In this document: piece by piece, positions 842 through 60,824 of the stretch
Position numbering within the stretch: the stretch's first letter is position 1
Layout: each line of letters opens with the position of its first letter
Source of the DNA: Ginglymostoma cirratum
Lineage: Eukaryota
Length of the DNA: 64,000 bases
NCBI GenBank assembly: GCA_024137785.1
Contig: JAHRHZ010000058.1
Coordinates: forward strand, 33,151,646-33,215,645
Direction: 5' to 3'
Made by a program: the position numbers and the translations under genes
The notes under the pieces: generated by a model
Told to the model about the DNA's origin: nothing
What the model saw: the letters and a program-made list of their open reading frames with translations, nothing else
The model's database searches: none

Positions 842-1690
842 CATAGAGTCATAGCGATCCTACAGCTCGGAAACAGACCCTTCAGCCAACTTGTCCATGC
901 CGAACAGATATCCTAATTAAATCTAGTTCCATTTGCCAGCATTTGGCCCGTATCCCCCTAAACCCTTACATTCATATACCCATCCAGAAACCTTCTACTT
1001 GTTGTTATTGTACCCACCTCCGGCAGCTCATTCCATATACACACCACCGTCTGCGTGGAAACTTTGTTTCTTAGGTCCCTTTTAAAGCTTTCCCCTCTCA
1101 CCCTAAACCTATGCCCTCTAGTTTTGGATTCTCCACCCTGGGGAAAAGACCCTGGCCATTCACCCTATCCATGTCCCTCATGATTTTATTAACTTCTAAA
1201 AGGTCATCCCTCAGCCTCTGACGCTCCAGGGAAAATAGCCCCAGCCTATTCAGCATCTCCCAATAGCCCACACTCTCCAATCCTAGCAACATTCTTGTAG
1301 AATTCTGAAGAAGGGTCCAGACCCAAAACGTCAGCTTTCCTGCTCCTCTGATGCTGCTTGGCCTGCTGTGTTCATCCAGCTCTACAACTTGTTATCTAAC
1401 ATTCTTGTAAATCTTTTCTGAACCCTTTCACATTTAACAACATCCTTCCTATAGCAGGGGGCCAAAATTGAACGCAATATTCCAAAAGTGGCCTAACCAG
1501 TGCCCTGTACAGCCACAACATGACCTCTCAACCCCTATACTCAATGCACTGACCAGTTAGGGCAAGTGTATCAAATGCCTTCTTCACCAACCTGTCTACT
1601 TGCGACTCCACTTTCAAGGAGCTCTAAATCTGCACCCCAAGGTCTCATTGTTCAGCAGCACTCCCTAGGACCTTAAGTGCATAAGTACTG
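842..1690 (-). mobile_element. CR1 LINE 3' fragment
   Basis: ORF 1098..1292 (LNRLGLFSLERQRLRDDLLEV) is the CR1 ORF2 C-terminus; CATAGAGT-type tail repeat at 842-855. Confidence 0.9.
1300..1397 (+). mobile_element. Penelope-like element 3' tail (family A) with degenerate hammerhead core
   Basis: CTGAAGA-AGGGTCCAGACCC-AAAAC-GTC followed by the family A tail; 12-bp TSD AACATTCTTGTA at 1288-1299 and 1398-1409. Confidence 0.85.
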
Positions 1691-2444
1691 TCAAGAAAAA
1701 AAACACCTGGTTCACAAAATGTCCATTAGAGAAGGAAATTGCTATCCTTACCTGTTCTGGCCTACATGAGAATCCAGCCTCCCAGCAATGTATGTGACTC
1801 ATAACTGCCCTCTGGGCAATTAGGAATGGGCAATAAATGCTACCCTAGCCAGTGTTGCCCACATCCTGTGAATGAATACAAAAAGAAATGCAATTGCCCT
1901 TTGAATGGCCTCATATTAAACACAAGTGGAGCCTCCTCCTGCAAACAATCAAAACTATTTTTCTCTCCCATTGTGCAGATGAAAGGCTTCAGAGAGTAAG
2001 TTACACACACCACCTATTATCCTAGTTGCCCCACATTCCATCTCCCCACCCGACTCCCAACCTTCATGTTCCTTTCTGCATTGCAGTTTCTGTCAACAAG
2101 GCCAGTTTTGAACCTTCGCATGACCTCAAAATTGTTTTTAGCTATTCAACTCTGCAATTTGCCCCCAAGCTCCAGGGGTACCACTTATTACCACTTAGTA
2201 ATGCCCACCATATTTATGCACTGTTTTTCTGTTGAAGGCAGGGTTGTGGTGACAATCAATGTCCTCCTATCTCCCAAAGCACCCCATGCCCTCCCATGCG
2301 ACAATGTTTCCAACCTTTAACCGAAGAGTTGCCCCTTTCTCAGTGCTTTTCTCTTCTGTATCCCAGCTGCATCCAATCCCCACATTTGACTTCCCCAACA
2401 CAGAGCTTTTTCTCTGATAACCCTTCTTGGCTTTTAGTGCACAA

Positions 2445-2780
2445 ACCCCCAGGACCAACTGTAGCCCATACCATAGACCAAATTGGGAATACAGCCCTGA
2501 CTGATGATGGATCAGACCCATGACTAATATTTGTGCAGCTCTCCGACTGACCTACTAATATTCCCTAGACTACTCGGCTCTGAACCCCAGGACTGACCAT
2601 GGTCTAAGCCCCAGTCTGTAAGAATGCAGAACCCTGGACCGTGAATGCACCAAGTAGCCAACTGACCTTAGCTATTCTCCTGGACTGACGTTGGATAATG
2701 GCCTTGACGAACTGTGGTAGCACTCCTTGACTGACAACTATCCTCTTTGACTGGAAGAAGGACTATTCTCTTTAGACTTT
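2445..2780. repeat. Degenerate minisatellite, ~23-24 bp period, ~15 units
   Basis: GAC(T/C)(G/A)AC-like core recurs roughly every 20-24 bp from ~2449 to ~2772. Confidence 0.55.
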
Positions 2781-6845: not shown

Positions 6846-6975
6846 GAGATAGTAAGAACTGTTGACGCTGGGAGTCAGAGACAACACAGTGTGGAGCTGG
6901 AGGAACGCAGCAGGCCAGGCAGCATCAGAGGAGCGGGAAAGTTGATGTTTCGGGTAGGGACTCTTCTTCAGAAAC
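6846..6975 (-). mobile_element. Penelope-like 3' tail (family A, long terminus)
   Basis: Reverse strand reads CTGAAGA-AGAGTCCCTACCC-GAAAC-ATC followed by the tail, ending TTACTATCTC. Confidence 0.8.
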
Positions 6976-9731: not shown

Positions 9732-10320
9732 AGTTATTTTCCCCAATCTTTAATAAATTTTACCCAGCAAAGTTCTAACCTTTAGTGAATTTCCTGTGAA
9801 TTCCTCAATTATTTTCACAAATGAATTATTTTGGTGAAACCTCTATATTTCACTTAATTTTGTTGATTGAAGATCTGAGAACCCTGGGATAAGAGTGCCA
9901 ACAAAGAACTGAACTGATCCTTCACTCTTTCAACTTAACTCCTTGACAAAAACCTGCTTTTGGGTTTACCTATGCTTAGGCGTAAATGGTGGACTGTTGT
10001 GGTACAATGGTAGTGTCCCTATTTCCACCAGAGTGTGAGTTCAAGTTTAAAGGTGTGTCACCATATATCTGAAGAGGTTAACTAAAAATATCTAGAAATA
10101 AACGATGGCTTGTTGAACAGTTTTACATCATCCTAGTTGGATTTGATTGTCATTTGCATTGTCAACTATCAACTATAACGCATTCAAATTGCTAAATGCT
10201 TATTAACCGTTTCTTGCCACAGACAGTTGTATCTTAAGTTAAAACTACAATCAGCAATAGCTAAATCTAGATATTGAGCATTCAAATAATCAGAAAATAT
10301 GATAAAATGCACAAAACAAT

Positions 10321-10376
10321 CCTGCTCCTATGATGCTGCTTGACCTGCTGTGTTCATCCAGCCCCATGCTTGTTAA
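10321..10376 (+). mobile_element. Very short PLE family A tail (young subfamily)
   Basis: Matches the reverse complement of 40068-40123 (CCTGCTCCTATGATGCTGCTTGACC...CATGCTTGTTA). Confidence 0.8.
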
Positions 10377-10559
10377 CTAGCATAGATTATTGTATGCTGT
10401 TTAACAGTAATTCAACATTCACTTACACCACACTCAGGGCACTAAACATTTCTAGATATTCTTTTAGGCATATTTTGAAACTTGGAATCTGGATGATCAA
10501 TGTCTGCTTCTGTCAAGGCAGTCAAATTTCCTTCAGTGGTCTTAAAATCAGATTGGGCA

Positions 10560-13535: not shown

Positions 13536-15578
13536 TATTTACATTGCTGATCATTTCATTCAACACCAACACTTCCACACACACGAGCCAAGGAAACTTA
13601 GAAATCTTTGACCACAAGGAGCAATGGAGTCAGCATTTTATCTGCATATTTTTTATCTTGTTTCTACATGCTGCAGCTAGCTTTAACACAGGCATTGATC
13701 CATTGGTACATTCTGTGTGGACATGAGTTTAGGCATCATGGTGGTACAGTTACTTTCCAAGCTAGATAGACAGTCAACAACCAGGCTAATTACAAAACCA
13801 TTACCACTTATGGGACATGAGACTTCATACTGTGCAATGTCATCCATGCCACCAATGTGGCCTGAGAAGAAGTTTATTTCTTTCCCTCCCACCATGTCTC
13901 AGCTGGGCTAGAGGGAGCCTGCTCAACAGTGTTGGCCTGAGAGATTTGGTCATGCAGTAGGGGGGTCTTAATGTTTAGATGGCCCAAAATGCTGAGGGTT
14001 CCTGCCACAGGTAAGTTGACCCTTCTTGGTTTGAATTTTCAAGAGTTGGAAGAGGAAAGGCAAGAAGTGGAGGGCCTGGACACCACTGGATCTCCTGAGA
14101 AGGGACTTCTAAGGGTTCCATGCATGGTTTCCACTCTGGATGGGTGTCTTCTAGCGCAGTACTGTCTCCTTGTGAGAAAGGGTCATCTGGAGTGAGCACC
14201 AGATTCCCCGTATCCTGTTACCATCTCTTCAATTACGAGGAGAATGGTGAGGGTGATGGAGTGCAGGTCTGGCCACATATCCAGCAGACCCTGAGAGTAT
14301 TGGACCTGGGTATCAATGGCAGCTGCCAATCTGTTCGTGGAGGTAGCCAGATGACAAATCATTGAGGCAGCCTCCGGGCTATGATGTGTCCCTCATGTCT
14401 ATCTGCAGCTCCTGTTCCGCATTGTGCATGTGGGTGAACTCACTAATGGCTGAGCAGGGACTGCACTCTGGCAGGCCTCTTAGTGACCAGTGGCCTGAAA
14501 TGTTTCTTCCTTATCAGAGCTGTCATAATGACGTGCTTCCAAACTGTCTAAGCACGATGCTCCCTCCGAGGTTTCTGTATCTGGCCTGGTGGACAGGTGC
14601 AGGAGATGCCTCATAGCCTTGCAATGTTTGCTCTGAGGCATTGCAATTTTATTCCTGAGAGTTCCAAGCGGTACCTTCCAGGCGATCAGCCCATTTCTCC
14701 TTTTCTGCTGGGACCATTCCACTGACACTGGCTCGACATGAGGGAGAGAAGGCGTCACTGCCAATAATGAGTAGAGGTGGTCAATGGATAACACTGACAG
14801 CAAGGCTATTGTGAGAGTTGCAATGGAATGAAGGATGATACTCACCTCAGTTGGCGGGATATGGATGACTCAGCATCTCCGTAGGGGCAGTCCTAGTCTT
14901 GTCCTGAAAGGGACTGAGTATTCTCCTCAGAGTAGGTAAGGAGCAGAATTTTGAGCACCCCTGCACCCATCTTGGTTCTTTCCATCCTATTATGGGCTGT
15001 TTTCTCCTGTAATGGGAGAGAAGGAGGGAATAAATGAGGTAAAAGTGGATGTCACAGCTTTTTCTGCTGGTGCAGGTCGGTGAAAGGTGTTGAGGTGGCC
15101 CAGGTGACTGAGCAGGTACCACAGAGACCATGGACAGTTAGTGACATGGGGAGGTTGGCGAGGGACGAGACCAAGTGAGAGAAGATGCTGCATTCAACAG
15201 TAAGAGTAACAGTGCACAAGGCTTGGTGAGAGCTGGGTGCAGTAGCAGAGATAATGAGTGTGAGGTAGCTAAGAAAAGAGTGTGGCACTTAGACTGGCAC
15301 ACCAAAGTGTTAAATGGCTTTCTTGTGGCACTGTTGGGCATTCCTCTGCACTGTTGACACAGCACTGGCCCAGGTAGTTGCTTCGAACTAGACTGCCAGG
15401 ATCGGGTGGCCTGGCCTCCTCTGCAAGTCCTCTAGGAAGAGGGTGGTCCTCCTCTTGGACCACACCATCAGGACCTCCACAAACCATGGCACCATTATCT
15501 CCTTCTCAGAATGACCACACTTCAACATGCAGGACAACTTCCAAATGCCACTGCTCATCCGGATGTGCAACACTCTTC

Positions 15579-15666
15579 AAGGTCAGAAATCACACAACAC
15601 CAGGTTATATTCCAACAGGTTTATTTGAAAAAAACGAGCTTTCGGAGTCTCGCTCCTTCTTCAGGG
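15579..15666 (-). mobile_element. PLE 3' tail, family C
   Basis: Reverse strand: hammerhead core followed by AATAAACCTGTTGGAATATAACCTGGTGTTGTGTGA. Confidence 0.75.
15636..15664 (-). ncRNA. Minimal hammerhead ribozyme motif (family C)
   Basis: CUGAAGA-A-GGAG(CGAGA)CUCC-GAA-AG/CU-C; palindromic AGCU stem III, CUC cleavage triplet. Confidence 0.65.
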
Positions 15667-19039: not shown

Positions 19040-19950
19040 AAAGACATTTATCAACCATTTCTACAATTTAAGGACAGTGGAGGTACTGAGGGAGGTAGCC
19101 GTGAGGTAAAGCTGGACGTCATTGGTGAACAGAGAAAAATTATTGCTGCATTTTTGGATGATACCAATATGGGCCAGGATGTGGATGAGAAATAGGAGGG
19201 TGGGAGGGAGATTAGATACTGGGCTGCTACCAGAGGTAATAACACAAGAGCAGGAATAGAAACCATTACAGGTGATTTTCTAGCTATGACTGTCCAAGAA
19301 GAATTGAACTGGGTGAGTGCAGTCTTTGCTAGAAAAAAGAGTAGAGGTGGTCGAGGGACTTATTGTAACCAACTGTGTCCATGACAAGTTAAGGAAGAAA
19401 GAAATAAAATTGTGATGTTTCATTGTTATTTCTCACAATTACAGGTGCTTTGCGGACAAGAATGTAGCTTTGAAGCACAGTCACTATTCTAATGTAATAT
19501 GAGCAATTTCTAATTTGTACTCAATAGTGAGCTCCCATAAAGAGCAATATGATAGTGGCCAGAAAATATATTTTTGTGCTGCCTTTTGAGGAAAAAATAT
19601 TGACCGGGGAACCAGGACTCGTCCTGAAAACAGTGGCTTGGGATCTTTTACATTGAGGGGGAGATGGGGCCTTGGTTTAACATCTCACACAAACATGGAG
19701 CTGTAGATAAGATGGACATGGACTTGTGGATAAGATGGACATGGATTTGTGGATAAGATGGACATGGAGTTGTGGATAAGATGGACATGGATTTGTAGAT
19801 AAGATGGACATGGAGTTGTGGATAAGATGGACATGGATTTGAGAGGTGTCAGCTTATTTAAAAGCTTGAGAAAGGAAAGGGAGTTTGGAGACAGAGCTGT
19901 AGTTTGTGAGGACAAACAGGTCAAGGGTTTTTGAGGAATGGTATGATACA
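19040..19950 (-). mobile_element. L2 RT fragments interrupted by a DeuSINE-like SINE (~19420-19690)
   Basis: Reverse strand ..DDVQLYLT.. near 19100-19125; Deu-domain-like TGAGATGTTAAACCAAGGCCCCATC at ~19663-19688. Confidence 0.6.
19694..19842. repeat. 23-bp tandem repeat, ~6.5 copies (ACATGGA.TTGTGGATAAGATGG)
   Basis: Near-perfect units are directly visible. Confidence 0.95.
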
Positions 19951-40543: not shown

Positions 40544-41784
40544 GATACACCATATCCACAGGTTTGCCATTGTCCACCATGCAAGTAATGTCCTCAAAGA
40601 ATTCCACCAAATTAGTTAAACATGACCTACCCTTCATGGACCCATGCTGGTTGTTCCCAATGGGACAATTTATATTCAGATGTCTTGCTATTTCTTCCTT
40701 AATGATAGATTCAAGCATTTTCCCCACCACTGAAGTTAAGCTAACTGGCCTATAGTTACCTGCTTTTTGTCTACTTCCTTTTTTAAACAGTGGCATCACA
40801 TTGGCTGTTTTCCAATCTGTGGGATTTTCCAATCTGCCATCTGCAATCATTATGTTCTTATGAGCTTGCTATACTTCTACTGGTTAATCCTTCCACTATT
40901 CCCATCCATCTCTTCACTTCTTTCTCCTTATTCTCACTCCTTCTTCCCTCTTAAATTTATTTATCTCGCCCCTATTGTATCATTCCCATTTACATCGACT
41001 TTCCTCTTCTTTCACTTCTCCTCCTCTGTTCCTATACCCTTTCTCTCTTTTCCTCCTCATCATGTTCTTTTCCTTTACCTTTGCGGTCTCCTTCCCCAGG
41101 TTTTTCTCAAATTCCATACACTTGCACTTTCTCCTCCTTCTTTCTTTTCTTTTCTGGGCTTTTGTTTCTTTATGTCAACTTCACTTCTGTGACCAATCTT
41201 CTGTTTCCTTTCTACTTCACAAATCATCCACTTTAAACCCAAATAGTTTAAAAACTATATTGTATTTTCTCAATCCCCCTTGTGCAGTGCTATCAAAAGT
41301 TGACTGGTACATCTATAATTTCAGTGTGCAGGCACCTGTCGGCATTCCCTATGGATATTTTATGTAAATTGTGCCTGTTAGGTAATTCTAAGAGTTTCTT
41401 CTTCAGAGCACTCATTTTGTCTCAACATTCTTAGACACAAAAATTTCTATCTAGTTTTCTCTAAATGCTTAGTTTTAGTGTCCTTATACTTCCAAAATTA
41501 TTAGCTAATTCTGTACTAATCTGGATTTTCAAACTCACTTTCATAGATTGTTTACTCAGGTTAAGTTGGAGGTGAGTCTGTACTCTTTGGGTCCTGCTAA
41601 CAAATTGAAAGTTCAGTGTTTTTGACATTTCCAAAACCAAAGCTCAGTCCTTGCATCAAAAAAAATTTGGTCTACCAAATTTAATCGCATTTAAAGCATG
41701 TTCGTAGTCTTGAGATCCACACTATTAGAAGGATAGTGTAACTCTACAGAGGATACATTATAGATCAAAGTTTTTGAAACAATT

Positions 41785-42545
41785 TGTAGCTCAGGGCGTG
41801 GATGAAGTTGTAGACTTGCTCTCCGAGCCAGTGTGTTTGATTGCAGACGTTTCATCACCCTGCTCAGTAACATCGTCAGTGCGCCTCCGATAAAGTGTCG
41901 GTGTTCTGTTCCACTTGTTATTTATATGCCTCAGTATGCTGGGGTGGTTGGCATCACTTCTGGTTCTGTTGTACAGTGGTTTGTATATCGGATTCAGTTC
42001 ATGTGTTTGTTGATGGAGTTCCGGCTGGAATGCCAGACCTCCAGGAATTCCCTGGCATGTCTCTGTTTAGCTTGTGCTATTATACATGTGCTGTCCCAGT
42101 CAAATTTGTGTACTTCTTTGTCCGTGTGTACTAAGACCAGTGAGAACTGGTCGTGTCATTTAGTGGCTAGTTGGTATTCAAGTATCCTTATTGTCAGCTT
42201 TCTTCCACTTTGGCCTATGAAATGTTTCTCTCAGTCCCTGCATGGTATCTTGTATATTACGTTAGTTTTATTGGTTGTGGGTATGGGATCCTTTATGTTC
42301 ATCGCAGGGTTTTTGTTAGTTTTGTGGGTTACCCTGAAGCCTAGGGGTCTGTGGTCATCTCTGAAATATCTCTGTACAGTAGAGTGACTAGTATGTCTGG
42401 CCATGTTGTCTCGGCTTGTTGTGGTCTGTAGCGGAGGTAATAATGACATCCTTTGATGTAACAGGACTAGTTACATCCATAAACATCGACCTACCCAAAG
42501 AGACAATTGCCACACTGCTGGGCGAATCAGTAAGGCAGGCACCCC
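41785..42545 (-). mobile_element. PLE family D fragment (GIY-YIG on -) with an inverted RT piece at its 5' end (~42430-42545, +)
   Basis: KDPIPTTNKTNVIYKIPC on the minus strand; SFDVTGLVTSINIDL.KETI on the plus strand; hammerhead at 41846-41879. Confidence 0.85.
41841..41884 (-). ncRNA. Minimal hammerhead ribozyme motif (family D)
   Basis: GCA-CUGACGA-U-GUUAC(UGAGCAGG)GUGAU-GAA-AC/GU-C-UGC; stem I is GCA/UGC. Confidence 0.7.
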
Positions 42546-42819
42546 TGAATGAATTTGGAAACAAAAAGAGTTGGACACATGAAATAAGACACATTGAATA
42601 ATACTCAATAAATGTAAAAAGATAAAAGTAGCCAGCAGAAAGGAGTCAAAATTAAAAGACGGCAGCAGACTGAAGGAAAGTTAAAATTGAGTTATTGCGG
42701 TTAAAGTTAAACCACATAGATAAATGGAAGAAAATTAGCAAGAAAGAGAAACAGACAAGAGGAAGATAACTAAGATGAAGATGGAGGAAATACAAACAAA
42801 ATACAGCAGAAACTGCTAC

Positions 42820-42925
42820 TGAATTCGGACGAAGAGTCATATCAGAGTTGAAAAATTAATTTTGTCTCTCTCTGTACATATGCTGCCAGATTTACAGAGT
42901 TTCTCCAGCACTTTCTGTTTTTCTT
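42820..42925 (+). mobile_element. Degenerate PLE family B tail
   Basis: CGGACGAAGAGTCA...GAAAA...TCTCTCT...ATGCTGCCAGA...TTTCTCCAGCACTTTCTGTTTT. Confidence 0.6.
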
Positions 42926-43414
42926 ATTGGGGATTTGATCTGTGCCTGTTGTCAAATGTTCAGCAGTAAGAAAGCCTGATACGATAGAGGGGAAAGTAGA
43001 GATCCAAACTTTTTTCTATTAAATCAACAAATTTAAGGAGAGAATATTGGCCTCAGAGTTAATTACAAACACCTACAAGTTGTTGCAAATCTATGGTTTT
43101 ATAAAATGATTATGTTTTGAACTGTCTCTTTAAAATCAAGGCAAAATGATCTAATAGTGAGTGACTTGCAATGTCCTGCTACTTCTTCCTGGTAATAAAT
43201 CAAGCTGGCCTGGTTGCTGCAGAAATGCAGAATCCTAGATCATTTATCATTGACATGCAGGTACAAAGTTTAACACACGAAAAACAAAGAACAGAGTATC
43301 TGGCTTCACCATGGGTGAACTTACAGACTGTCAGACCGTCTGATTAAAAGCACTTTGGGGTCAGACAGAGAAAGACAAAGGAAGAATCAGCAGCCATTGC
43401 TAGCAGCAGGTCAA

Positions 43415-45898
43415 CCAGGTGGACCTTGGGGATTGTTGTTTGACGTGGGTTAACATCCTCAATCAGGAAGCCCTGACTGACCAATATAAAACAGGTAATT
43501 CAGAATCACCTCAGTTCAGAGAACTGAAACCTTTCGGAATCCAGCGAGACCCAGCTCACTGTAGAGGACGGCATATTACTTTGGGAGCAAGAGTGATTGT
43601 CCTGGAGTAAAGGTCACTGCCAGATACTGGCTGAACTCCACCAGGGTCATCCAGGGGTTTCCAAGATGACGATGCTGGCAAGAAGTTATGTCTGGTAGTC
43701 AGGGTTGGATGCTGACATACCTGTGTGGGTGGGGCAGTACCCAGGGTGCCAACAAGTACAAACATGGCCACCAGCACACCCCCACCCCCCAACATTCATG
43801 GGAATGGATTGGTCAATCCTGGACTCATTCACATGTCAACTATGCTGATCCCCTCGTGGGCTCAATGTTGCTAGTCCTGGCGTACACCTATTCAAAGTGG
43901 TTGGACATGCATAAAGTCTGATCGGTAAACTTGGGGAATGACAATTGTGAGGCTGTGAGCATCATTTGCAATACACGGTCTCCTGGAAGTATTGGTCATG
44001 GACAATGGGATGTCATTTACCAACAAGGAATTTGAATATTTCCTTAAGTCAAATGGTATTCAGTACTTAAGGACAGCTCCATACCATCCTTCATCCAATG
44101 GTCAAGTGGAAAGAGTGGCCTAAACATTGAAGGCAGCCTTAAAGAAGCAGCCTACGGTGTCACTCAATACTAAACTGTCTCGGTTCCTGTTCGATGATAG
44201 GACCACCCCTCACACAACAACAGGGATAGCTCCAGCAGAGTTGCTGATGGGGAGAAGACTCAGCACCAGGTTAAACCTGATATTTCCAGACCTGGGATGG
44301 GGGGTTGGCGTGAAACAGCAGCAGGACTGTCATTGCCGGCCACATGCCTCCTCTGAAGCAAGAGAAAGAGACAATTTAATTCGGGGACAAAGTTTGGTGC
44401 TGGACACATGGAAATGGCCCTGTATGGGTACAAAGTTCGGGCAGGTGAGGCAGTCTTGAACAAATGTGGATCACATGAAAGCCGTTACTTTGCAAACAGT
44501 ACAGGAACAAAATATACCTAGTTCCTCAGGTCATCTGGCTGCTCTCTCAGAAACTGAGAGTCCTCCCAGCCTCTGTTTTAGTGTCAAGGAGACTTCAGAA
44601 TCCAAGATGGATGCAATCTCAATACCTTTTCTGCCAGAAGAAGAGGCAGAAACCGTCCCAAGATGCTCCAGACAGAAGAGACAGGCTACTGTCGAGTACA
44701 CAGTGCTCGTGTCAAAGTCCAAATCAGAGGAACAGGATATGGGGTAAAAACATCACAGAAAAAACTGCAAGACCAAACCTCCATCCCCAGACTTAGTGGC
44801 ATCAGTGGGGGTGGGGGAATGATGTGGACCTTGTGGACTACAAAAGGTCCTTGCTTGGGATTGTTAACCCAGGTCAGTCAGGACCCCCTGGCCAACCAGT
44901 GTAAACGGGAGATTTTATCAATAAAGCTATTTCCACTTCTGGTGTTTTTACTGTTTCTCACACCTACAAAAAATTAACTAGGAGATGAGAATCGCCTTAG
45001 TTCAAGTGACTGACCAAAAAAAAATATGAACGGGGATTGTTCAAGCCTGAGTGCAGAGGGAGCACGTATTATCCACCAACACTCGCGCTGCCTTTAGGGA
45101 GAGGTGGGCACCACAAGGGTGAGCCCTTTATCTTGCCCTTCCAATTCTATATTGATTTGATCCCTACCTTCCCCTTCACGTTTTCTTTCACATAAGCAAA
45201 GCTCGGTAGGAGCAATGTTTTTTATTGGTCCATTGGCCATATGGGTGTCTTTCCTGGTGGTGGAAAGGTTGAATAAAGTTGTTTTACACGTGGTGTTTTT
45301 ACTGACTCCTACACCTACACACACACACGCACACACAAGTGCAGTGGGTAAAAACTAAGCACTACCTCTGTATGGCAGCAGGTGTAGGGGTACTTTTAAA
45401 AGAAATAAAGTAACCAGGAGGAAAGGGTGTCCATGGAGAAGGAGCACACCGTGTCCACCAAAATTCTTGCTGCCTTTAGGGAGAGGTGGATACCGTGGGG
45501 GTAGAGTGTTTTATTTCCCTTTTCGATTCTGTTTTGATTTAGTTCTTACCTTTCATTCACTTGTTTCCCCCTTCATTTACTGCCCTTACTGGAGTTCTGC
45601 TTGTCACAGGTTCCTTGGCCCATGGGTGTTTTTCCTGGTGTTAGAATGTTAATGAAACTGATGTTTCTCGTTGTGTCTTGCACCTACACACAACATGGGT
45701 GTTGGGAAAGACAGGCACTGCTGCTGTACTGCTGTAGTGTAGGGTATTTAAAACAAAAACAAAATATAAACAGGGGATTTAGAATCTCCTCTGTTCAGCA
45801 GACTGACTCTGAGCTGGCTGGTCACAGCCAGTGTACTGTGCACAAGTAAATAAAGGGTGATTTGATGATGGGAGAATAGCCTCTGTGCAGTTATTTCA
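43415..45898 (+). mobile_element. Internally deleted Gypsy LTR retrotransposon: 5' LTR ~43415-43650, integrase remnant ~43790-44295, PPT ~44804-44819, 3' LTR 44820-45898 (interrupted)
   Basis: W..SW.H.HV.YA.P..GSM.LV....YSKW, DNG..FT..EF..FL..NGI, TAPYHPSSNG..ER and RTTPHTTTG.APAELLMGR motifs; purine tract followed by TG...AATAAA...TTTCA. Confidence 0.85.
44917..45762 (+). mobile_element. Tandem 3' ends of an L1-clade (Tx1-like) non-LTR element inside the Gypsy 3' LTR
   Basis: Two ORF2 C-termini, REHVLSTNTRAAFRERWAPQG* (~45057-45122) and RVSMEKEHTVSTKILAAFRERWIPWG* (~45424-45504), each followed by a related 3' UTR and A-rich end; a third, UTR-only piece at ~44917-44973. Confidence 0.65.
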
Positions 45899-45939: not shown

Positions 45940-47430
45940 TCTTCACAGTGTAGATAAGGAGAGGATATTTCTTCTGATGGGAGAATATAGAACTAGGGGC
46001 CACTGTCTAACAATTAGTAGTCATCCATTTAGAAGAGATTTATTTTCTTTCAGACAGTTGTAAATCTTTGAAACTCTCTTCCCGGAAAGGTATTCGTAGC
46101 AAGGTCCTTGTATTTAAGGTTTTTGCAAAGACCTGTAGCGAGGGTTGTGGGTGAGGTGTTAACTTGCTCACTGAGCTGGCTTGTTCTTGTTAAGACATTT
46201 CATCACCATGCTACGTAACATCATCAGTGAGGCCTCCAATTGAAGCAATTATGCTTCACTCCGCTTGGAATTTACATTGTCCGCTCTGTTATGGTGTTGG
46301 TTCAGATGTTTCATCACCATCCTAGGTATTCACCAGAGAAGAAGAAAGCAACAATCAGCTTCTGTTTCTGGATGTCAGAGTTGAATGTACAACCAACAGG
46401 ATGTTCCAGACCTTGGTATACAATGTTTGGAAAGCAATCCACACGGACCAAATCCTCAACTTTCACAGCAACCTCCCCAATGCCCACAAACAAAGCTGTG
46501 TTAGGACTCTATTTAAACAGGCCACCACTCACTGCAACATGCCAGAACTATGCAGAAAAGAGGAAGAGCACCTATACAAAACCTTCACTATAAACCGATA
46601 TCCCCGCAACTTCATCTGTAGATGCCTACTAAATAGCCAACAACAAGAGGACACAATACACCCTAACACACTGGCCACACTCCCCTACAGCAAGAACATA
46701 TCAGAACTGACTAGACTCCTAAGACTACCAAGAATCATGGTGGCCCACAAGCCCACAGTCAATCACAAACAGACACAAAGATTAGACAACCCATTCCCAC
46801 AACATGCAGAACCAACGTAGTGTACAAAATACCATGCAACGACTGCCACAAACATTACATTGGACAGACAGGAAGGAAACTAGCCATCAGAATACCCGAA
46901 CATCAGATAGCAGCAAAACGACACAATGAACTTTCCTTTATATTGGTACACTCAGACAATGAAAGTCATCAGTTTAACTGGGACAAGGTAACCATAGTAG
47001 CCCGAGTGAAACATAGACATGCACAGGATTTCCTAGAGGCATGGTTCTCCACCCATACTTCAATCAACAAACGTATAGAATTGTACCCATATATAAACCC
47101 ATACAGATCAAAACCGGAAATGACAGTACTTACTGTAACAGACCGGACAGTATAAATTCCAAGTGGAGTAGAATAACATCATTTCATGGGAGACTCTAGT
47201 GATGATGTTACCTAGCATGGTGACGAAATGTCTAAACGAAAACAAGCCAGCTCGGCGAGCAAGTCAACAACATCAAGGTCCTGTACATTTTTAAGGAGGT
47301 GGTTAACAGGTTTTTGTCAAGCTTAGGTTATCAGGGCTAGACATAAATATGAATTTGATGCTAACAATCATCTCCACTTGAATGACAGAGCAGGCTTGAG
47401 GTGCTGAATGGCATATTCCTGCTCCTTATT
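45940..47430 (+). mobile_element. CR1 3' fragment split by a PLE
   Basis: CR1 end motifs at 45940-46120 resume at 47275-47430. Confidence 0.7.
46135..47273 (+). mobile_element. PLE family D: RT C-terminus, GIY-YIG and tail, with an inverted pseudo-LTR at the 5' end
   Basis: FLDV.V, KAIHTDQILNFHSN and VYKIPCNDC.KHYIGQTGRKL..R..EH motifs; 46160-46235 is the inverse of ~47190-47270; approximate TSD CAAGGTCCT(T)GTA. Confidence 0.92.
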
Positions 47431-47966: not shown

Positions 47967-48107
47967 GAGAGATAAAAGGTACTGCAGATGCTGGAGAATC
48001 CGAGATAATTTTTTCTGATGAAGGGTCTAGGCCCGAAACGTCAAGCTTTCCTGCTGCTATGATGCTGCTTGGCCTGCTGTGTTCATCCAGCCCCACACCT
48101 TGTTATC
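47967..48107 (+). mobile_element. PLE family A mini-insertion with the distal 3' extension inverted at the 5' junction
   Basis: 13-bp TSD TTTA(A/G)ACTGTTGA (47954-47966 and 48108-48120); 47967-48008 is the reverse complement of the tail extension. Confidence 0.9.
48012..48045 (+). ncRNA. Minimal hammerhead ribozyme motif (family A), intact core
   Basis: UUU-CUGAUGA-A-GGGU(CUAG)GCCC-GAA-AC/GU-C-AAG. Confidence 0.75.
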
Positions 48108-51289: not shown

Positions 51290-52310
51290 TATGGGGACAA
51301 GGCACTTCACCGAAACATTATGAAATGAATGTGACACAGAAATATAAACAGATATTAGTTCTGATGGCCAAAAACTTTGTTAAAGAGATAGGTTTTAAGT
51401 AGTGCCTTGAAAGAGGAGAGTGAGGTAGTGGAGTGGAGAGATGTAGGGATTGCACTCCAGACCACAGGGCCTAGGCAACTGAAGGGTCAGCCGTTAATAA
51501 TGAAGCAATTATGATTGAAAGTGTACAATAGGTCAGAATTAAAGAAGATAGATATCTCAGAGTATTGGAAAGTTGAACGAACTTAAAGACTAAGCGTAGC
51601 AGGGCCATGGAAGGATTTGAAGAAATTGATGACAACTTTAAATGAAGACATTACTTGACTGAAAGCCAATGCAGGTTGGTGAGCATAGGGATGATGAGTT
51701 TGGGACAAGATGCAAATTAAGACATTAGTAACGATGTTTTGGATGACCTCAAGTCTACGGAGGATAGAATATGGGAGTTCTGCTAAAAGTACATTGGAAT
51801 TATCAAGTCTAGAGGTAACAAAGGCTTGGATGAGAGTTTCAGCAGCAGATGAGCTGAGAGAGGGGCAAATTGAAGCAATGTTACTGAGGTGGAAATAGAC
51901 GGCTTTAGAGGTAGCGCATATGTGACCCAAAGTCTGCAACTTGACTGTGTTGATTTCAGACAAAACAGAGTGCTGCAAAAATGCAGCAGGAGCCTGACAG
52001 CATCTGTAGAGAGAAAACGGTTAACATTTCAGGTCCAGTTACCCTTCATTAGAAGTGACCTTTGAGTTCTGATGAAACGTCACTGGGCTTGAAATGGTAA
52101 CTTTGCTTTCTCTCTACTGTTACTGCCAGATCTTCTGCATTTTTGCAGCATTCTGTTTTGTTTCAGATGTCCAGCATCCGCAGTTTGTTTGTTTTTATTC
52201 TGGCAAAGAATGAGTTCATTAGTTAGAGGATGGAGTTTGGAACAAGGAACAGAAACAATGACTTCACACCTCCCAATACTTAATCAAGGAAATCACAGCA
52301 GGATTATCAG
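51290..52310 (-). mobile_element. L2 LINE 3' fragment, interrupted by a PLE palindrome
   Basis: ORF 51583..51978: YFHL.NIA.I.P.LS...AETLI.AFVTSRLD.SN.LL..LP, the classic L2 ORF2 end. Confidence 0.9.
51958..52199. mobile_element. Head-to-head pair of PLE family B tails forming a ~240-bp imperfect palindrome
   Basis: CAAAACAGAGTGCTGCAAAAATGCAG ... CTGCATTTTTGCAGCATTCTGTTTTG; decayed hammerhead cores on both arms. Confidence 0.8.
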
Positions 52311-52873
52311 CGAACAGGAGGACTTATTTGGACAGGGAGAACTGGTAGATAAATAAAAGCAAAATACTGCAGATGCTGGACATCTGAAACGAACAAAATT
52401 CTGGAGAAATCCCACAGACCTGGATAGCATCTGTGGAGAGAGAAACAGAGTTAAGATTGAGTCCAGTATGGTGATTCTTCAGAATTTAAAAAAAAATTCC
52501 AATTTTTTTAAGTATGCTCTCAACAAAGAAAGCAATCATTCTTCCCCTCCCCTCCACTTTCAGCGTTCCACAGGCACCATTTCATCTGTGATATCCTGGT
52601 CCATTCCTCCACTCTTAACACTTCTTTCCTCCTCTATTGTGTGCCTTTTTGCAAAATCACAGAATAATGTAGTAATTCCCCATTCACCTCCTCCCTCCTC
52701 ACTGTCCAAGGCCTCAAACATTTTACTCGTAAACTTCTTTCAATCCAGTCCAATACATTCATTTCTCGACTGCGTACAGTCTCCTCCATATTGTCGAGGT
52801 CAAATGCAGACTGGGTGATCATTTTGCACAATAACTCAACTCTGACACTTCAGCTGCTTGCCATTTCAATAAA

Positions 52874-53627
52874 CCATCTTGTTCTCATACTAACATTTCT
52901 GTCCTGGGCTTGTTGCATTGTCCCAAGAAAGCACAAGACATGCTTGAGGAACAACACTTTTTTGTTCATGATGGTCAACTGTTGGTTAGGCCAGCATTTA
53001 TTGACCATTGCTAAATACCCAGAGGATAGTTAAGAATCAACCACATTCCGGGGGTCCGAGGTCACTTGCAGGCCAGACCAGGTAAGAATGGCAGACTTTC
53101 TTCCCAATATGGCATTAGTAAATCCGATACAACAATTGACAGTGGTTACATGGTTGCAATTAGTTAGCTCCTTAACTCCAAAAAGATAGCAAGAACTGCA
53201 GATGCTGGAGCCTATAGCCCGATGGCCCAAATATGGAATTCACCAGCTTTAAAATCTCCCCACCCCTGGCCTCATCCCATGTCCGACTTTCCCTCCTTGA
53301 CCTAACACAACCTGTCCATGATAACAAGCATGGGGCTGGATGAACACAGCAGGTCAAGCAGCATCATAGGAGCTCGGATTTACTAATGCCTTATTGGGAA
53401 GAAAGTCTGCCATTCTTACCTGGTCTGGCCTGCAAGTGACCTCGGACCCCCGGAATGTGGTTGATTCTTAACTATCCTCTGGGTATTTAGCAATGGTCAA
53501 TAAATGCTGGCCTAACCATCAGTTGACCATCATGAACAAAAAAGTGCTGTTCCTCAAGCTTGTCTTGTGCTTTCTTGGGACAATGCAACAAACGCAGGAC
53601 AGAAATGTTAGTATGAGAACAAGATGG
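52874..53627. repeat. 254-bp inverted repeat (52874-53127 and 53374-53627)
   Basis: Arms are reverse complements with only about six substitutions. Confidence 0.95.
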
Positions 53628-54005
53628 CTCCAGAGGAGATAAAAAACAGGTACCACAACCTGTCCATCTTCTCTCCCACCTATCCACCCCCTGACCAACG
53701 CCACCGCTCCCTACCTGCACTCAACCACCTTCTCCAGCCCCATCCCTCTTCTCTCTATTTCTGAGCTCCCTTTCACCTCCTCATTTCTGAAGGAGGGTCC
53801 CAATCGGAAATGTCTACTTTCCTGCTCCTCTGATGCTGCCTGGCCTGCTGTGTTCCTCCAGCTCCACACTGTGTTACCTCTTTAATTCCAAATTTGTTTT
53901 TGATTGAGTTCAAATTAAACCATTAGCATGGTGGGATTTGAACCTATGAATTTCAGAACAGTAGCCTGGATTCTGGATTACTAGTGACATTACCACTACA
54001 CCACC
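52985..54005 (-). mobile_element. tRNA-headed SINE split by the PLE at 53184-53881
   Basis: Tail GGCCAGCATTTATTG at ~52989 and head GGGATTTGAACC...ACCACTACACCAC at ~53932-54005; TSD TTAA(C/T)TCCAAA at 53172-53182 and 53882-53892. Confidence 0.8.
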
Positions 54006-54379
54006 CCCACACTCAAATTTCACTTAAGCACTTCACAGCCTCAGGGACTCAATATTAAATTCCACAGCTTTAGACCCTGACTGCATGGTGGCAGTTCTCC
54101 ATTTTTTTTTAACATTTTCTTCCCACTCTCCCTTACAGCCTTGTGTCTTGTTTACTTTGCTCTCAGTAGAAGGGATCCTTTCTCTAGCTTCCAGTCCTCA
54201 GTTTTTACTCATTTCACATCTTTTTTCTCTTCACCACCATTAACAATCCTTTTGTCTTTTGCACTAGGCCTACTCACCATCTGTTCTCTTCGCCCCTCCT
54301 CTACCTCCATCAAAAAGAATTAGAAAAGAAACCATCTTCCAGCCCCTATTTGAGGAAGGATCCTACTGGATTTGAAATC

Positions 54380-54684
54380 ATAGAATGCCCACAGGCCCAA
54401 CAAATCCAAACTGACTCTCTGAAGAGCATCCCACCCACCCCACCCCTGTAACCCTGCATTTCCCATGGCTAATCCACCTGATTTACACATCCCTGGACAC
54501 TATGGACATTTTAGCATGGCCAATCCACCTAAGCTGCACATCTTTGAACAGGCAGGAGGAAAGCCACACAGATCCAGGGAGAACATGCAAACTCCACACA
54601 GACAGTTGTCTGAGGCTGGAATTGAACCCAGGTCCCTTGTGCTGAGAGGCAGCAGTGCTAACCATTGAGCCACCGTGCTGCCCC
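54380..54684 (-). mobile_element. HE1-type V-SINE
   Basis: Reverse strand: GGGGCAGCACGGTGGCTCAATGGTTAGCACTGCTGCCTC...GGTTCAATTCC...TGTGTGGAGTTTGCATGTTCTCCC. Confidence 0.9.
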
Positions 54685-57677
54685 ATGTTAACTCTGTTTT
54701 TCTCTCCATGAGATGTTGCCAGAATTCTGGGGTATTCATGATCTTGCAAATGGCCATTCAGTAGTACTTTTTAAACATTATTGGAATGACCTATGGTGGT
54801 CCTTTTCACCACATAGCTCCCTCACAATTGCAATGTCTCCCATTCAGTCAATACCCAAAGATTGAGAAATTCTAAGTAATAACTGCTTCAAAGTGCTTGG
54901 CTGTACCTTTGAACAAATTGCACTGTTGTCGAAAAATTCTGTTATTTCAACAATCGAAACGTGCATAATTTAATTCAGCACGTTTTATGTGGGATTGCTA
55001 ACCAACTGCTTACTGACACTTAAATTTCATCACGTTAGCCTCAGGCGAAGAAACAATAATAAATAATATAATTAGAAACTATTTTAAAAATCATACTTTG
55101 CACAAAATAAGACAGGATCGAGACAAAAAAAAACTCCCATTATTTACTCCAGAGTATCTGCATTCTTTAATCTTGCTTTGTTTTATGGTTATTCAATCAA
55201 GAAACTTGATTACTGTTTTCATTAACTTTACCATTGTAATTTAACTTTTGGTTTTCCAGCAGCTCAAGGGATTCTGGCTGTTTAATAACCAAGCTCATGT
55301 GTCCTAAAATTGAAAAATGACCTCATATTACTGTATCATATCTTTAGGGCTTGAAACTCTTCATAGTTTGCAGGTGGTTTGAGAAATTATTGATGATAAA
55401 GCATGTTGCAACTAAATTGCATCCATATTTAAAAACCAGGAGAAGCATATAATTTGCTTATGTTCTTTATCTCCCAACTAAAATTGAGGCTTAATTGATA
55501 AATAAACCTCAGTTGAGAATTCATCTTAAATTCTTATTTTCAAAAAATATCCCCCCACTACTGTTGGTTCACAATGACAGAAAAAAATCAGATGAAAATC
55601 AACAATTTGAACTTAGTTTTGCGATGTGCAAAAGCACAATCCAAGGTGAATGTTATAACCAATCCTGAATGCACTTTTTTGGATGTTGCTGAGATTTGTG
55701 GTACCTCTATGGCTCTGTACTCTGTAAACAGACTCAAGGCTCATGATTCTTGTAGCTGCGTGAGTGAAATTCTTTTCGTGCAGTAGTGCAAGATAGGCAA
55801 TAATAAACGGGAACAGCAATCAGACAGCATCGAAAACAACCTGCCGATTCACTCAAACCCAAGACAAATTTCACCACTCTCATATTTCAGCCTCATTTGT
55901 CCAAAATATGCTAGCAGTGAAAACTCAGAAAAGCCATTAGCTGTTATACCACTTTCCTTCATTCCGAGATCAGTAAATAAGGTACGTGGGGACAATCAGA
56001 AGATTGCAAAAAGATTCTCAACGAATGAGGAAGGTTGGAGGAAACATTTGGTCGAAGCAAAATGGCTTTAAAAATTCAGATCCAATTTGCTTTGTGAAAA
56101 AAATATTTTGGTTCATTTATGTCCTGAAACTGGTAACTAAAGTCATATTTTTATTTTTAATCTTTTTATTTTCAGCACTGAGACAATTAGCTGGCCTTTT
56201 TTCTTAAATAATTTATTACTTCCTCTATAGAGGCTAATAACTTTAAAATAAGTTAAATTCAGGCTTCCAGTTAGCAGTGGAGTAGATGACGCAATTTCAC
56301 ATTTTAAGATATCTTTTTCTTTCAGTTTTTCCAATGGTATGTGGGCTGCCACAACACTGGTTGATTACCTTGATGTCAACCCTCATTTCAATTTAGTAGC
56401 TGATTTTACAGTCTAATGTCATTCCAGTCACTAAGCTTCATATTTTAAATGCCTACTGGATAAGAAAAGTCTAAAAGCACCTTTGACTAAACATTATTTT
56501 CATAGATAACTTCTAAAGTACAAGAAGGAACACGCCACTTTTCCGTTTAGCAGAACCAAAAACATGTGACAAATGTACTTACTGCCATCTTTTTAGGAGA
56601 GATTCAATTCTCCTGCAATTTGTCCAAGGCAATTTTTACCTCTAAGCATTTGCTCTGTTCTTTTCCATTCCTAACCGAGAAACTGAATTGACTTTCATTG
56701 GAAGGTTTTGCTCACTGGAAATTCTTTCCCCTGGCACAAGTTCAGCAAATGTTCCATTCTCATTTTAACGCCTCATGAATTTGATCTTTCATTTTGAGTG
56801 CAAGCTCGCACCTGTACGGTTAAACACAACTTCATGCTATCTTCACCTGCCTTCTTGTCCCGGAAACTTGCAAACTAACATTGTAAGTTTTCAGGTATAT
56901 CTTGGATCCTCCCATTTTCAATGCCTAAGTACAGCAAAATAGTAATCACATTGACCATGTATCCAGGTAGAAATGCTGATTAGCTATCCTTGAGAACTCA
57001 AATTCCTTTTCTCTTCATAGTAAATGGATAGTTTATTATCTGACATTCCCAGTATTTTTTTGGAACCTCACTGTCTACCCACTATTAGCACATTAGCTGC
57101 TGCCATTGTTGTAAAATGAAAACACCTCACAGCTTTTTCCACAGTAAAACAATTCCTGCTCTTTTAATTTCCAACAGTCGAATTGCCCAGGCACGCTTAT
57201 AGGCAGATTTTTGAACAAGTCATGTAACCCCTTTCATTTGATTTTAAATTAAGGACATTCTCATAAATCTCAAAACTTGGGAAAAACATTCAAATTTGGA
57301 TGCCAGGGACACATTTGCTAATCTCTAATTTTGCTGGCCCAAGAGGAAAGGAGAAACCAATGATATAATTTGGTCTAACTCCCGGCACCTGTTTTATAGC
57401 AGCAGCCTCATGTATGGGTTATTCTAATTTGGTGATCTAGCAGTAAAGTAAATTGAATGACAACTGTTAAACTCCTGGGATAGAAATTGGTTCTAACTCA
57501 TTTTTGTGGGCCTGGCATCCCTGTAGAAAACTCTCGACGAATCAGAGGTCGAGTTTAAAGCAGGAATTATTCATTTGTATCCATAAATTCATGTCAGTTA
57601 CAGCTACATCTATTGTGTGACTGATTCAATATAAACAGCCTAATTAGACCTACTTGAATTAGATTTCCCTTAGGGTT

Positions 57678-57906
57678 AGAGATAAAAGGTACTGCAGATG
57701 CTGGAGAATCCGAGATAACAAGCATGGGGCTGGATGAACACAGCAGGTCAAGCAGCATCATAGGAGCAGGAAAACTTGACGTTTCGGGCCTAAACCCTTC
57801 ATCAGAAATGGGAGAGGGGAAGAGGGTTCTGAAATAAATAGGGAGAGAGGGGGAGGTGGATAGAGGATGGATAGAGGAGAGGATAGGTGGAGAGGAGGCA
57901 GACAAG
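57678..57906 (-). mobile_element. Young PLE family A 3' fragment (long terminus) with intact hammerhead core at 57778-57805
   Basis: Nearly identical to 40068-40260; CUGAUGA-A-GGGU(UUAG)GCCC-GAAAC-GUC. Confidence 0.9.
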
Positions 57907-59010: not shown

Positions 59011-59074
59011 CATTGCAAGAACAAATATAACTAAAGAAACAAGTAGAATTTGATACCAAGCCACAGAAGGAAAT

Positions 59075-59180
59075 ATTGGAAAAGTAAAACTAATACAGAT
59101 GCTGAAAATCTGAAATGTAAACTGAAAATGCTGGAAATACTTAGCAGGCCCAGCAACATCTGTGGAAAGAGACAATGTTA
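59075..59180 (-). mobile_element. PLE family B tail remnant
   Basis: CAGATGCTG.AAATCTGAAA...AAAATGCTGGAAATACT.AGCAGG...GCA.CATCTGTGGA.AGAGA. Confidence 0.65.
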
Positions 59181-60061
59181 GTGGGCTGGATTCAATACAA
59201 CCCATTATGGTGGAAAACATGGCAGTCAAAGCCATCTAATGGTTGGAGTGACCCTATGTTCGTCTCCCAGTGACAGCTAAAACTTCCACCGATTCAATGA
59301 GACGGTAGGAGGAGTTGACTTGAGATCTGCAGATGCCGCTGATGGATGTTAGTTAGGCTCATTAATGATTGCTGATTATGAACATAAACAATCACATCTG
59401 TATTTTGGATATATTCTAAATATCTATCTTGCATGTCTTCTTCATAAACTATTATAGTGCTCTATGTCCTGCTATGCCAAACTGCTAAACATCATACATG
59501 TTTACTATATTAGCCTACTAGCCTCCACAGCTACCTACAGATTGGCTGCTCCCCTCTACATGTTGTCATTCAAGATTTTGTGATCAAGTGCCAGACAAAC
59601 GTGTAGCTATTTGTTTGTTCCCCCTCTATTGGTTATTTCACACAGAATGTTCCTGAGATTAATTCCTCCATTTGCTGTGTTTTTGCAACTTGAAGACAGG
59701 AGGCAGCTGTGCCACGTTATATCCAGATGTGTTGATGGGTTTAGGGCTGACTGCTCATCATTTTCCTTTGTTGGTGTCTGTATCGGTTCCTATAAACTGA
59801 GGGTTGTTATGACTCTTTGTGGCCCCAGAACATATGCGATGATTGGGAAAGGGAATAGTGAGAAAAACCACACTGGCTAAGAAAAAGGAAATATTACAGT
59901 TGTAGCATATAATAATGAAATGGTTAAGGAAAATTCTTCTACAGAAAACCATGTCACAGATTTTACAAAGTGGTTTTAAGGGGCTGAATTAGCAAGTGGT
60001 GCATTTGAGATCTTTTAACCTAATAAAATTAAGATACCATAAACAATTATGTATAGCTTGC

Positions 60062-60824
60062 TAACAAGGTGTGGAGCTGGATGAACACAGCAGGCCAAGC
60101 AATATCATAGGAGCAGGAAAGCTTGACGTTTCGGGCCTCGACCCTTCATCAGAAATGGGGGAGGGGAAGAGGGTTCTGAAATAAATAGGGAGAGAGGGGG
60201 AGGTGGATAGAGGATGGATAGAGGAGAGGATAGGTGGAGAGGAGGCAGACAAGTCGAAGAGGCGGGAATGGAGCCAGTAAAGGTGAGTGTAGGTGGGGGG
60301 GTAGGGAGGNNNNNNNNNNNNNNNNNNNNNNNNNNNNNNNNNNNNNNNNNNNNNNNNNNNNNNNNNNNNNNNNNNNNNNNNNNNNNNNNNNNNNNNNNNN
60401 NNNNNNNNNNNNNNNNNNNNNNNNNNNNNNNNNNNNNNNNNNNNNNNNNNNNNNNNNNNNNNNNNNNNNNNNNNNNNNNNNNNNNNNNNNNNNNNNNNNN
60501 NNNNNNNNNNNNNNNNNNNNNNNNNNNNNNNNNNNNNNNNNNNNNNNNNNNNNNNNNNNNNNNNNNNNNNNNNNNNNNNNNNNNNNNNNNNNNNNNNNNN
60601 NNNNNNNNNNNNNNNNNNNNNNNNNNNNNNNNNNNNNNNNNNNNNNNNNNNNNNNNNNNNNNNNNNNNNNNNNNNNNNNNNNNNNNNNNNNNNNNNNNNN
60701 NNNNNNNNNGGCCCGAAACGTCAAGCTTTCCTGCTCCTATGATATTGCTTGGCCTGCTGTGTTCATCCAGCTCCACACCTTGTTATCTCGGATTCTCCAG
60801 TATCTGCAGTACCTTTTATATCTC
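60062..60824. mobile_element. Young PLE family A with inverted termini spanning an assembly gap
   Basis: Minus-sense tail at 60062-60309 (hammerhead 60125-60152), plus-sense tail at 60710-60824; TSD ATGTATAGCT (60049-60058 and 60828-60837). Confidence 0.85.
60310..60709. other. Assembly gap (400 N)
   Basis: Run of n characters. Confidence 1.

Follow-up and report, generated by a model that had tools for sequence, protein, structure and literature searches.

Hammerhead-bearing stubs of Penelope-like elements in a shark genome and what their ends suggest about element replication

The stretch analysed here, referred to below as the window, comprises 64,000 nt of Ginglymostoma cirratum DNA (GCA_024137785.1, contig JAHRHZ010000058.1, nt 33,151,646–33,215,645 of the forward strand; positions are counted from its first base). 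It is repeat-rich, has a G+C content of 41% and one gap of 400 N, and harbors 29 tails derived from hammerhead ribozymes (12 on the plus strand, 17 on the minus), which group into 23 insertions. These repeats are probably dead insertion stubs of endonuclease-bearing Penelope-like elements (PLEs) that carry the known minimal hammerhead, the short ones having been produced by reverse transcription that started ~95 or 130 bases into the element RNA and ran off its 5′ end. Both the element class and the ribozyme are already known; most informative are the insert-end maps, which give a specific and testable model of PLE replication. Stub starts just before the ribozyme likely mark the start of the RNA, and are a clue to how PLEs copy themselves.

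The hammerhead descriptor CUGANGA-N-stem II-GAAA-NN-UH matched the window 10 times and had no match in any of 200 dinucleotide shuffles, while an Rfam scan of the window recovered no hammerhead family and only four weak matches. An earlier note on this DNA, whose proposed hammerhead search succeeded with the descriptor but not with Rfam, had listed 16 positions, and all of them (15 distinct cores) hold hammerhead-derived repeat. Its account of the extra base after A9, of the stem II variants and of the loopless ACGU/AGCU palindromes was accurate, and the PLE origin and minimal type I architecture are upheld; copies do occur on both strands, but the listed set was incomplete. Counting positions relative to C3 of the core (+1), five of 21 scored cores are free of lesions (40158, 48015, 57805, 60152 and 41879); rows 26726 and 52483 were scored out of register, and both cores are plainly broken. 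The conservation of the cores was thus overstated, with five intact among the 15 distinct cores listed. Frequent lesions are CpG changes within ACGU or ahead of GAAA. Covariation among 14 copies of families A and B was no better than in shuffles (the score was reached in 207 of 500), as expected from decay after insertion. Between families it was 0.424 vs 0.215 (0/500 shuffles) and involved all three stem I pairs; the 12 distinct rows, from families A, B, C and X1–X3 (the last three from outside the window), were mostly picked as intact, and are related. Compensatory differences of C and D in stem II were read by eye with the stems side by side. The expected stem covariation is therefore present between families (scored for stem I, by eye for stem II) and missing among A/B copies. 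As judged from these alignments, the fold is maintained between families and decays after insertion. None of the five tandem-repeat rows of the window is a tandem hammerhead array. The sole partial tandem, at nt 46295–46328 (minus strand), consists of a half core followed, ~14 nt beyond the cut site, by another unit of family D.

Profile searches assigned 12 tails to family A, 12 to B, one to C and four to D. The tails had been described as otherwise unrelated, but those of A and B align at ~72% over 84 nt and cross-match in the profile searches, so there are three tail lineages rather than four unrelated ones. In family A, a GIY-YIG domain (Pfam PF01541, above cut-off) lies upstream of core 40158; this endonuclease (nt ~40290–40535, minus strand) is 96% and 90% identical to proteins of whale shark and zebra shark, respectively. 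A 96%-identical homolog (P0001) has reverse transcriptase (RT) motifs and, between RT and endonuclease, a CX2-5CxxC linker, a Neptune-type motif as defined in PMC8557442. The window copy of family A is truncated after the linker position, the family B remnant is decayed there, and no PLE RT core was found in the window copies. Family B has its own decayed endonuclease (nt 52518–52981, a 40% remnant), which the earlier note missed. The GIY-YIG region of family D has no Pfam match and aligns to that of A by BLASTP (E 7e-9); no linker motif was seen in its copy at nt 46326–47155. At 41879, the family D core contains an AUG, and the reading frame stays open across the long tail. Family C has no coding remnant in the window. 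The clade labels (Neptune for A/B, Penelope/Poseidon for D) are based on motifs, not on a tree.

Cores are found on the sense strand downstream of the endonuclease at 40158, 41879, 47199 and 54348, and likewise in 19 of 93 related loci by the strict descriptor, with more having a variant core. These 93 loci were fetched by the endonuclease alignment and are apparently animal DNA inside metagenomes and metagenome-assembled genomes. The placement downstream of GIY-YIG open reading frames (ORFs) had been noted before and is correct for 40158, but positions 40068 and 46135, given as such ORFs, are element ends; the second endonuclease stretch is actually at nt ~46802–47100 (plus strand), and the listed core 46194 is upstream of and antisense to its ORF. 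The window copies also display the 5′ truncation, inverted arms, one-sided tail of 30–40 bp and short target site duplications (TSDs) of PLE architecture. No match to the A/B tail pattern was found in metagenome or viral contigs, and viral contigs likewise gave no relative with the endonuclease alignment.

The 5′ ends of the shark copies are strongly clustered. Family A copies start at -2, -3, -3, -3, -5, +35, +39, -100, beyond -127, ~-220 and -385, and family B copies at +1, +2, -2, -2, -2, -3, -4, -4, +18 and +27, with two long ones. Of the 23 informative A/B arms, 13 start between -5 and +2 (12/20 when counted by insertion; the arm at 60710 was excluded because of the N gap), which confirms the earlier description of short inserts of ~100 bp beginning just upstream of the core. 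In simulations of exponential truncation this pile was reached in 0 of 20,000 runs at mean lengths of 50, 100 and 200, and in 0.7% at a mean of 25. Copies starting at this edge occur alongside long copies in the young A, old A and B branches, most of which are weakly supported. The cut site (+29 in A, +31 in B) lies ~30 nt downstream of the pile, so the ribozyme did not make these ends, and self-cleavage is ruled out as the origin of the main 5′ end. A splice acceptor was rejected as their source (B has an AG before -2, while A has none nearer than -24), as was a hairpin in the complementary DNA (cDNA), the candidates being weak (-1.5 to -5.7 kcal/mol) and not spanning the motif.

Promoter-like motifs stand at a matching distance. 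All three young A copies and the B copy at 30509 have a perfect initiator with its A at -4 and a one-mismatch TATA box 31 nt upstream, a combination with a background of 0.17% per 8-nt span. In family D, TATAAAT occurs 30 nt before an A at -17/-18 in two of three copies, and in the Anolis PAc template of PMC11167929 TATATAT stands 30 nt before CCATACC, with the A at -14 (counted by eye). From such motifs, the family A/B RNA is predicted to begin 4 bases ahead of the ribozyme core.

At the other side, most A/B copies have their end either around +93 or around +128 to +134, and the longer end was confirmed by aligned contigs (497 contigs in X1). An inverted pair usually combines a long with a short end (60062/60823, 51954/52198 and 46135/47276). 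In three inserts (48015, 53184 and 42826) the tail alone is inverted at the 5′ side, with no duplicated partner, and the same was seen outside the window (L177, L189, L192 and L194). In the 48015 insert, two pieces tile -3 to +128 once, with an overlap of ~6 nt, between TSDs; this arrangement is not producible by fold-back. For the PAc protein of Anolis, nicking and extension of both strands have been described, with two internal start sites and mostly uncut RNA as the template (PMC11167929); by analogy, the two fixed 3′ ends and the inverted tails fit priming from both target strands.

Starting from the features observed directly (the boundaries of the copies, their two fixed 3′ ends, the TSDs, the decay of the cores, and the TATA-like and initiator motifs), the following cycle can be proposed. 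A TATA/initiator promoter would put the hammerhead at the very start of the mRNA, and the RNA would carry this start region twice, at its 5′ end and within the 3′ pseudo-long terminal repeat (pLTR). Priming on the first copy would yield stubs of ~100 or 135 bp, and priming on the second would yield long copies, variably truncated; with two copies of the start region about half of the arms are expected to be stubs, and 13 of 23 were observed. Both nicked target strands would prime, one at each start site, producing inverted tails and head-to-head pairs. Most templates would be uncut, with a minority perhaps cut by the ribozyme. Such cutting would take off the cap (in family D also the AUG) and so suggests a feedback on the element's own mRNA. 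After insertion the cores would decay, and cutting of host RNA would be unlikely. More tentatively, the stubs may record a cycle general to PLEs, with a hammerhead at the promoter start, two-strand priming, run-off at the cap end and a protein-triggered decapping switch, of which inserts starting at the cut site would be the first in vivo trace; we regard this wider claim as possible rather than probable.

Families X1–X4, relatives of the shark families, allow the prediction to be examined outside the window. In X1, an invertebrate relative, TATATAA occurs at -39 in 25 of 33 copies (background ~1%), which predicts a start near -9. A search of G001–G003 gave 62 matches, of which 40 were kept after 19 that ran past the reference start and three that were tail-only had been dropped; for G001, 40 of 105 candidates were scored. 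Sixteen of the 40 starts (~11 insertions) fall at -10 to -6, a number reached in 0 of 100,000 uniform draws. The X1 copies include several head-to-head pairs in which one end is long and the other short, mostly with TSDs of 7–17 bp. A held-out set of 22 further regions was picked by tail motif; 11 proved to be another family, and the other 11 gave 12 starts (-22, -8, -7, -7, -3, -2, -1, +18, +19, +28, +29 and +33), three of them within -10 to -6 (p 0.003). The position of the pile moves with the TATA box, from -4 in the shark to ~-9 in X1. Four of the 52 X1 starts (L141, L098, L190 and L192) are at the cut site itself (+28/+29), and one old shark B copy starts at most 4 nt from its own cut site. 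As a trace of ribozyme cutting the X1 class is suggestive only, its p value being 0.008 under a wide null and 0.03–0.13 under a local one.

Several other observations about these relatives may be recorded here. Most X1 copies (L064–L092 and others) have the core CCGACGA, with U4 changed to C, of which the CTGA forms may be CpG decay products. Loci L175, L178–L184, L187, L188 and L191 belong to another repeat family, which shares the X1 tail from +37 to +93 and has its own upstream sequence. An insert of ~770 bp interrupts an X2 element (L024, L025, L030 and L034) at -6/-8 relative to the core. G001 (loci L082–L092 except L084), filed as bacterial, has animal-type Penelope elements in dozens of its contigs, and contamination by host DNA is therefore probable.

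A number of results weigh against a promoter-defined 5′ end. The motifs were chosen after the pile had been seen, and the start site is deduced from DNA motifs; the TATA/initiator pair is missing in four of 10 copies tested (old A 53787, B 54348, D 46227 and C), none of the three whole family D cores starts at the predicted site, and among five proteins compared by eye no N-terminus of the family A ORF was matched to the tail. Among the 24 rows listed out of 949 from related-organism contigs, in which the region is variable, there is no pile of loose ends at the shark 5′ edge. In X1 loci selected by endonuclease, only ~2 of 12 arms start near -9, and a TCGA palindrome at -10 to -7, the exact junction of four pairs, inflates the pile for paired arms, although X1 solos and other junctions also begin at -8 to -6. 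A TATA box is not visible by eye in X2 and X3. For X4 a start at -11 was predicted, but one pair begins at -5; most X4 matches, which extend over no more than the hammerhead, were left out of the count. Two further observations would be explained if RT stopped, or the product was later trimmed, at the 5′ foot of a folded or protein-bound hammerhead, the pile then reflecting structure and not an RNA start: the shark pile falls at the 5′ edge of stem I, matching its 5′ arm, and X1 has a second, minor pile at -3 to -1 (5/40; held-out 3/12). The RNA is also predicted to fold as a hairpin over the core. This explanation is unlikely, as the main X1 pile is ~5 nt upstream of stem I and tracks the shift of the TATA box, and the cDNA hairpins are weak and do not span the motif. 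RT, moreover, usually stalls on entering a structure, not on leaving one.

Run-off at the RNA start must also be weighed against inheritance of the 5′ end. The stubs could be non-autonomous elements resembling short interspersed elements, descended from a few short masters. Family A is very abundant in related organisms (8,624–44,255 contigs per run, a measure of depth and not of copy number), Drosophila Penelope has an internal promoter (PMC2377424), and PLE-derived retrozymes have been described (bioRxiv 10.64898/2026.07.22.740005). Against this stand the mixture of edge-start and long copies in each of the three branches mentioned above, starts that are ragged across 7 nt, stubs without a TATA-like box, and the presence of an edge-start arm and a long body within one insertion (nt 52350–54732), so that few-master descent seems improbable, slightly more so than a structural stop. 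For the inverted pairs, self-priming by fold-back, possibly on an antisense template, was proposed from similar junctions by Arkhipova (2013, PMC3846280), and could replace priming on two strands. Several X1 pairs do join at the palindrome without a spacer, and the L126 arms have a derived base in common; yet fold-back cannot yield an inverted arm with sequence missing from its partner, as in the seven inserts with lone inverted tails described above, and as the source of the inversions it is about as doubtful as the structural stop is for the pile.

The earlier note took the short inserts to be ribozyme-bearing cassettes seeded through a probable intron, which could cut host pre-mRNA. The five intact cores, the occurrence of family A sequence in a run guessed to be RNA, and the pair 57805/60152, the only close intact pair of the same family and strand (2.35 kb apart), would be compatible with such activity. 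However, 16 of 21 cores have lesions, A/B copies do not covary, the window holds no tandem arrays, and the predicted RNA folds sequester the core; published minimal hammerhead monomers were inactive (PMC4209133, PMC11167929), and one young site (nt 57678–57905) is empty in three runs of related organisms. A host exon was likewise not found: 150 of the 158 non-repeat ORFs of at least 45 aa were scanned with Pfam and none exceeded the cut-off (shorter exons would escape), the two sub-threshold matches being an integrase fragment and a domain of unknown function. There is thus no sign among these ORFs of the supposed intron, active cutting of host transcripts is very improbable, and harm to them by cleavage is unlikely. 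For these inserts, an origin as by-products of reverse transcription is a better reading than the seeding of cassettes. Family B tails, e.g. nt 32230–32265 (minus strand), have by eye a strong splice-acceptor look (TTAAC, pyrimidine tract, CAG) directly after the cut site. Exonisation may be more important to hosts than cleavage.

The individual insertions are described here in order, beginning with family A. An older-type short insert at nt 1303–1397 (plus) starts at -2 of core C3 1305, has the short 3′ end, a mutated G12 and a 12-bp TSD (1288–1299/1398–1409). Two old inserts on the minus strand have the long tail: nt 6846–6974, starting at -3 and with a decayed palindrome, and nt 26887–27015, starting at -5, with a broken core and a 16-bp TSD. 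A young fragment at nt 10320–10378 (plus) starts at +35 and is without a core, and the short insert at nt 27837–27922 (minus), with a decayed palindrome, starts at ~-3 by its TSD (the local alignment extends to -14, into the TSD). The young element at nt 40068–40543 (minus) is 5′-truncated and lies inside a long interspersed element; besides its GIY-YIG region and intact core 40158 it has TATTTAT at -35, an initiator A at -4 (40162), the short 3′ end and a 17-bp TSD. In the young insert at nt 47967–48107 (plus), the inverted tail (47968–48008, 41/41 identical to the long tail) is joined to a unit running from -3 to the short end, with intact core 48015 and a 13-bp TSD with one mismatch. The old element at nt 53184–53880 (plus) consists of an inverted tail (53184–53210), the endonuclease C-terminus, broken core 53787 and the short end, with an 11-bp TSD (one mismatch). 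Nested in it at nt 53320–53653 (minus) is a young insert with a 14-bp TSD, whose tail piece from +39 is joined to a 254-bp inverted copy of nt 52874–53127 (248/254 identical); this segment was copied from DNA ~190 bp away and looks like a template switch onto host sequence. The young insert at nt 57678–57905 (minus) has TATTTAT (57840–57834), an initiator A (57809), intact core 57805 and a long tail. Finally, a young head-to-head pair spans the N gap (nt 60062–60823), the left arm having intact core 60152 and the short end, the right arm the long tail.

Family B includes two short inserts on the plus strand, one at nt 25289–25382 that starts at +1, has a decayed palindrome and is preceded by a borderline inverted tail (p 0.033), and one at nt 26727–26827 that starts at +2, with a broken core and an 11-bp TSD overlapping its 5′ end. 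The old copy at nt 30414–30600 (minus) has kept its upstream sequence, with CATAAAA at -35 (30544–30538) and the initiator TCAGTTC (A at -4, 30513) ahead of a decayed core. The insert at nt 32153–32291 (minus) starts at -3 and has a long tail and decayed palindrome, while at nt 42788–42926 (plus) an inverted tail (42788–42823) is followed by a unit starting at -2 with a broken core. Head-to-head pairs occur at nt 33222–33399 (left arm from -4; right arm from +18 and shorter) and nt 51954–52198 (arms from -2 and -4, with two broken cores, one 3′ end being short and the other long). The long element at nt 52350–54732 comprises an inverted long-tail arm (52350–52484, minus) starting at -2, the decayed GIY-YIG body (52518–52981, plus) and a 3′ core near 54348 that a repeat at ~54379–54684 interrupts. 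An old copy at nt 59078–59186 (minus) starts between +27 and +31, near the cut site, its exact start being ambiguous.

The one family C insert (nt 15575–15664, minus) has an intact core and AGCU palindrome and is without the stem I 5′ arm; it appears to start at the core through microhomology with the target, as far as can be judged from a single copy with no upstream reference. Family D is represented by nt 41783–42330 (minus), with a decayed GIY-YIG, TATAAAT 30 nt before the A at -17 and intact core 41879, and by nt 46135–47276, in which an inverted left arm with a long tail (core 46227 and half core 46328) is followed on the plus strand by a GIY-YIG remnant body, TATAAAT (47151–47157), an initiator A at -18, core 47199 with a mutated C3, and a short right end. 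Elsewhere in the window are a 23-bp minisatellite of 6.5 copies (nt 19693–19841) and an integrase-like remnant (nt 43959–44456; PF00665, below cut-off), probably from an old retrotransposon with long terminal repeats.

Cervera and de la Peña (2014, PMC4209133) described minimal hammerheads in metazoan PLEs as abundant single copies and opposite-strand pairs, and reported that they do not cut as monomers. The shark motifs resemble these in their core boxes, the extra base after A9, the palindromic 15.2/16.2 pairs and the missing helix III; they too are mostly single motifs in truncated copies, with opposite-strand pairs 100–700 bp apart in that study also. The available text of PMC4209133 names no shark and maps no copy ends, and gives ~4,000 hammerheads for the coelacanth genome and ~9,000 for Xenopus, against 10 matches per 64 kb here with a different descriptor. 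A functional parallel is the Poseidon element PAc from Anolis (Frangieh et al. 2024, PMC11167929), whose hammerhead cut only with its own protein. As in that system, the AUG lies inside the core (in family D), and for the shark it is proposed here that two internal RT start sites likewise define the tail, that uncut RNA is the main template and that both strands are nicked and extended. The accessible part of that report describes no defined RNA start or 5′ run-off products, and no PAc reads ended at the cut site, whereas four of 52 X1 copies start there.

The 5′ truncation, inverted arms, one-sided tail, short TSDs and palindromic junctions agree with published PLE architecture (Craig et al. 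2021, PMC8557442; PMC3846280), in which inverted pLTRs have a 30–40 bp tail at one end; a rotifer pLTR also carries a TATA box and initiator. Where those papers ascribe the tail to endonuclease resolution and the inversions to self-priming, the inverted tails of the shark point to two-strand priming, and the shark 5′ ends, unlike those in that architecture, are non-random. Non-LTR retrozymes (PMC7229834; bioRxiv 10.64898/2026.07.22.740005) are likewise short, non-coding and PLE-related with a type I hammerhead, but they form tandem arrays, while the shark stubs occur dispersed, as monomers or in inverted pairs, and begin ahead of the core and not at the cut site. PLE integration and the role of the hammerhead are described as open questions (PMC11167929, PMC8557442), and in the literature outside subscription papers, as far as its text was accessible, no report was found that assigns the 5′ ends of PLEs to a start site or suggests that PLEs undergo twin priming.

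If insert ends do map the RNA start, the cut site and two priming events, copy-rich genomes would provide a readout of the PLE cycle; the predictions are exact to a few bases, and sharks supply very many copies. The domesticated intronic hammerheads of amniotes are canonical motifs at conserved orthologous sites. The shark motifs differ in having no Rfam hammerhead match in the window, and in that the one site checked was empty in three runs. In L1 twin priming, two cDNAs are made from opposite target strands and give an inversion between TSDs. The arrangement proposed for the shark elements is alike in that opposite-strand cDNAs would give the inversion, and differs in that both primers would use internal sites that are fixed, the 3′-most tail being the piece that is inverted.

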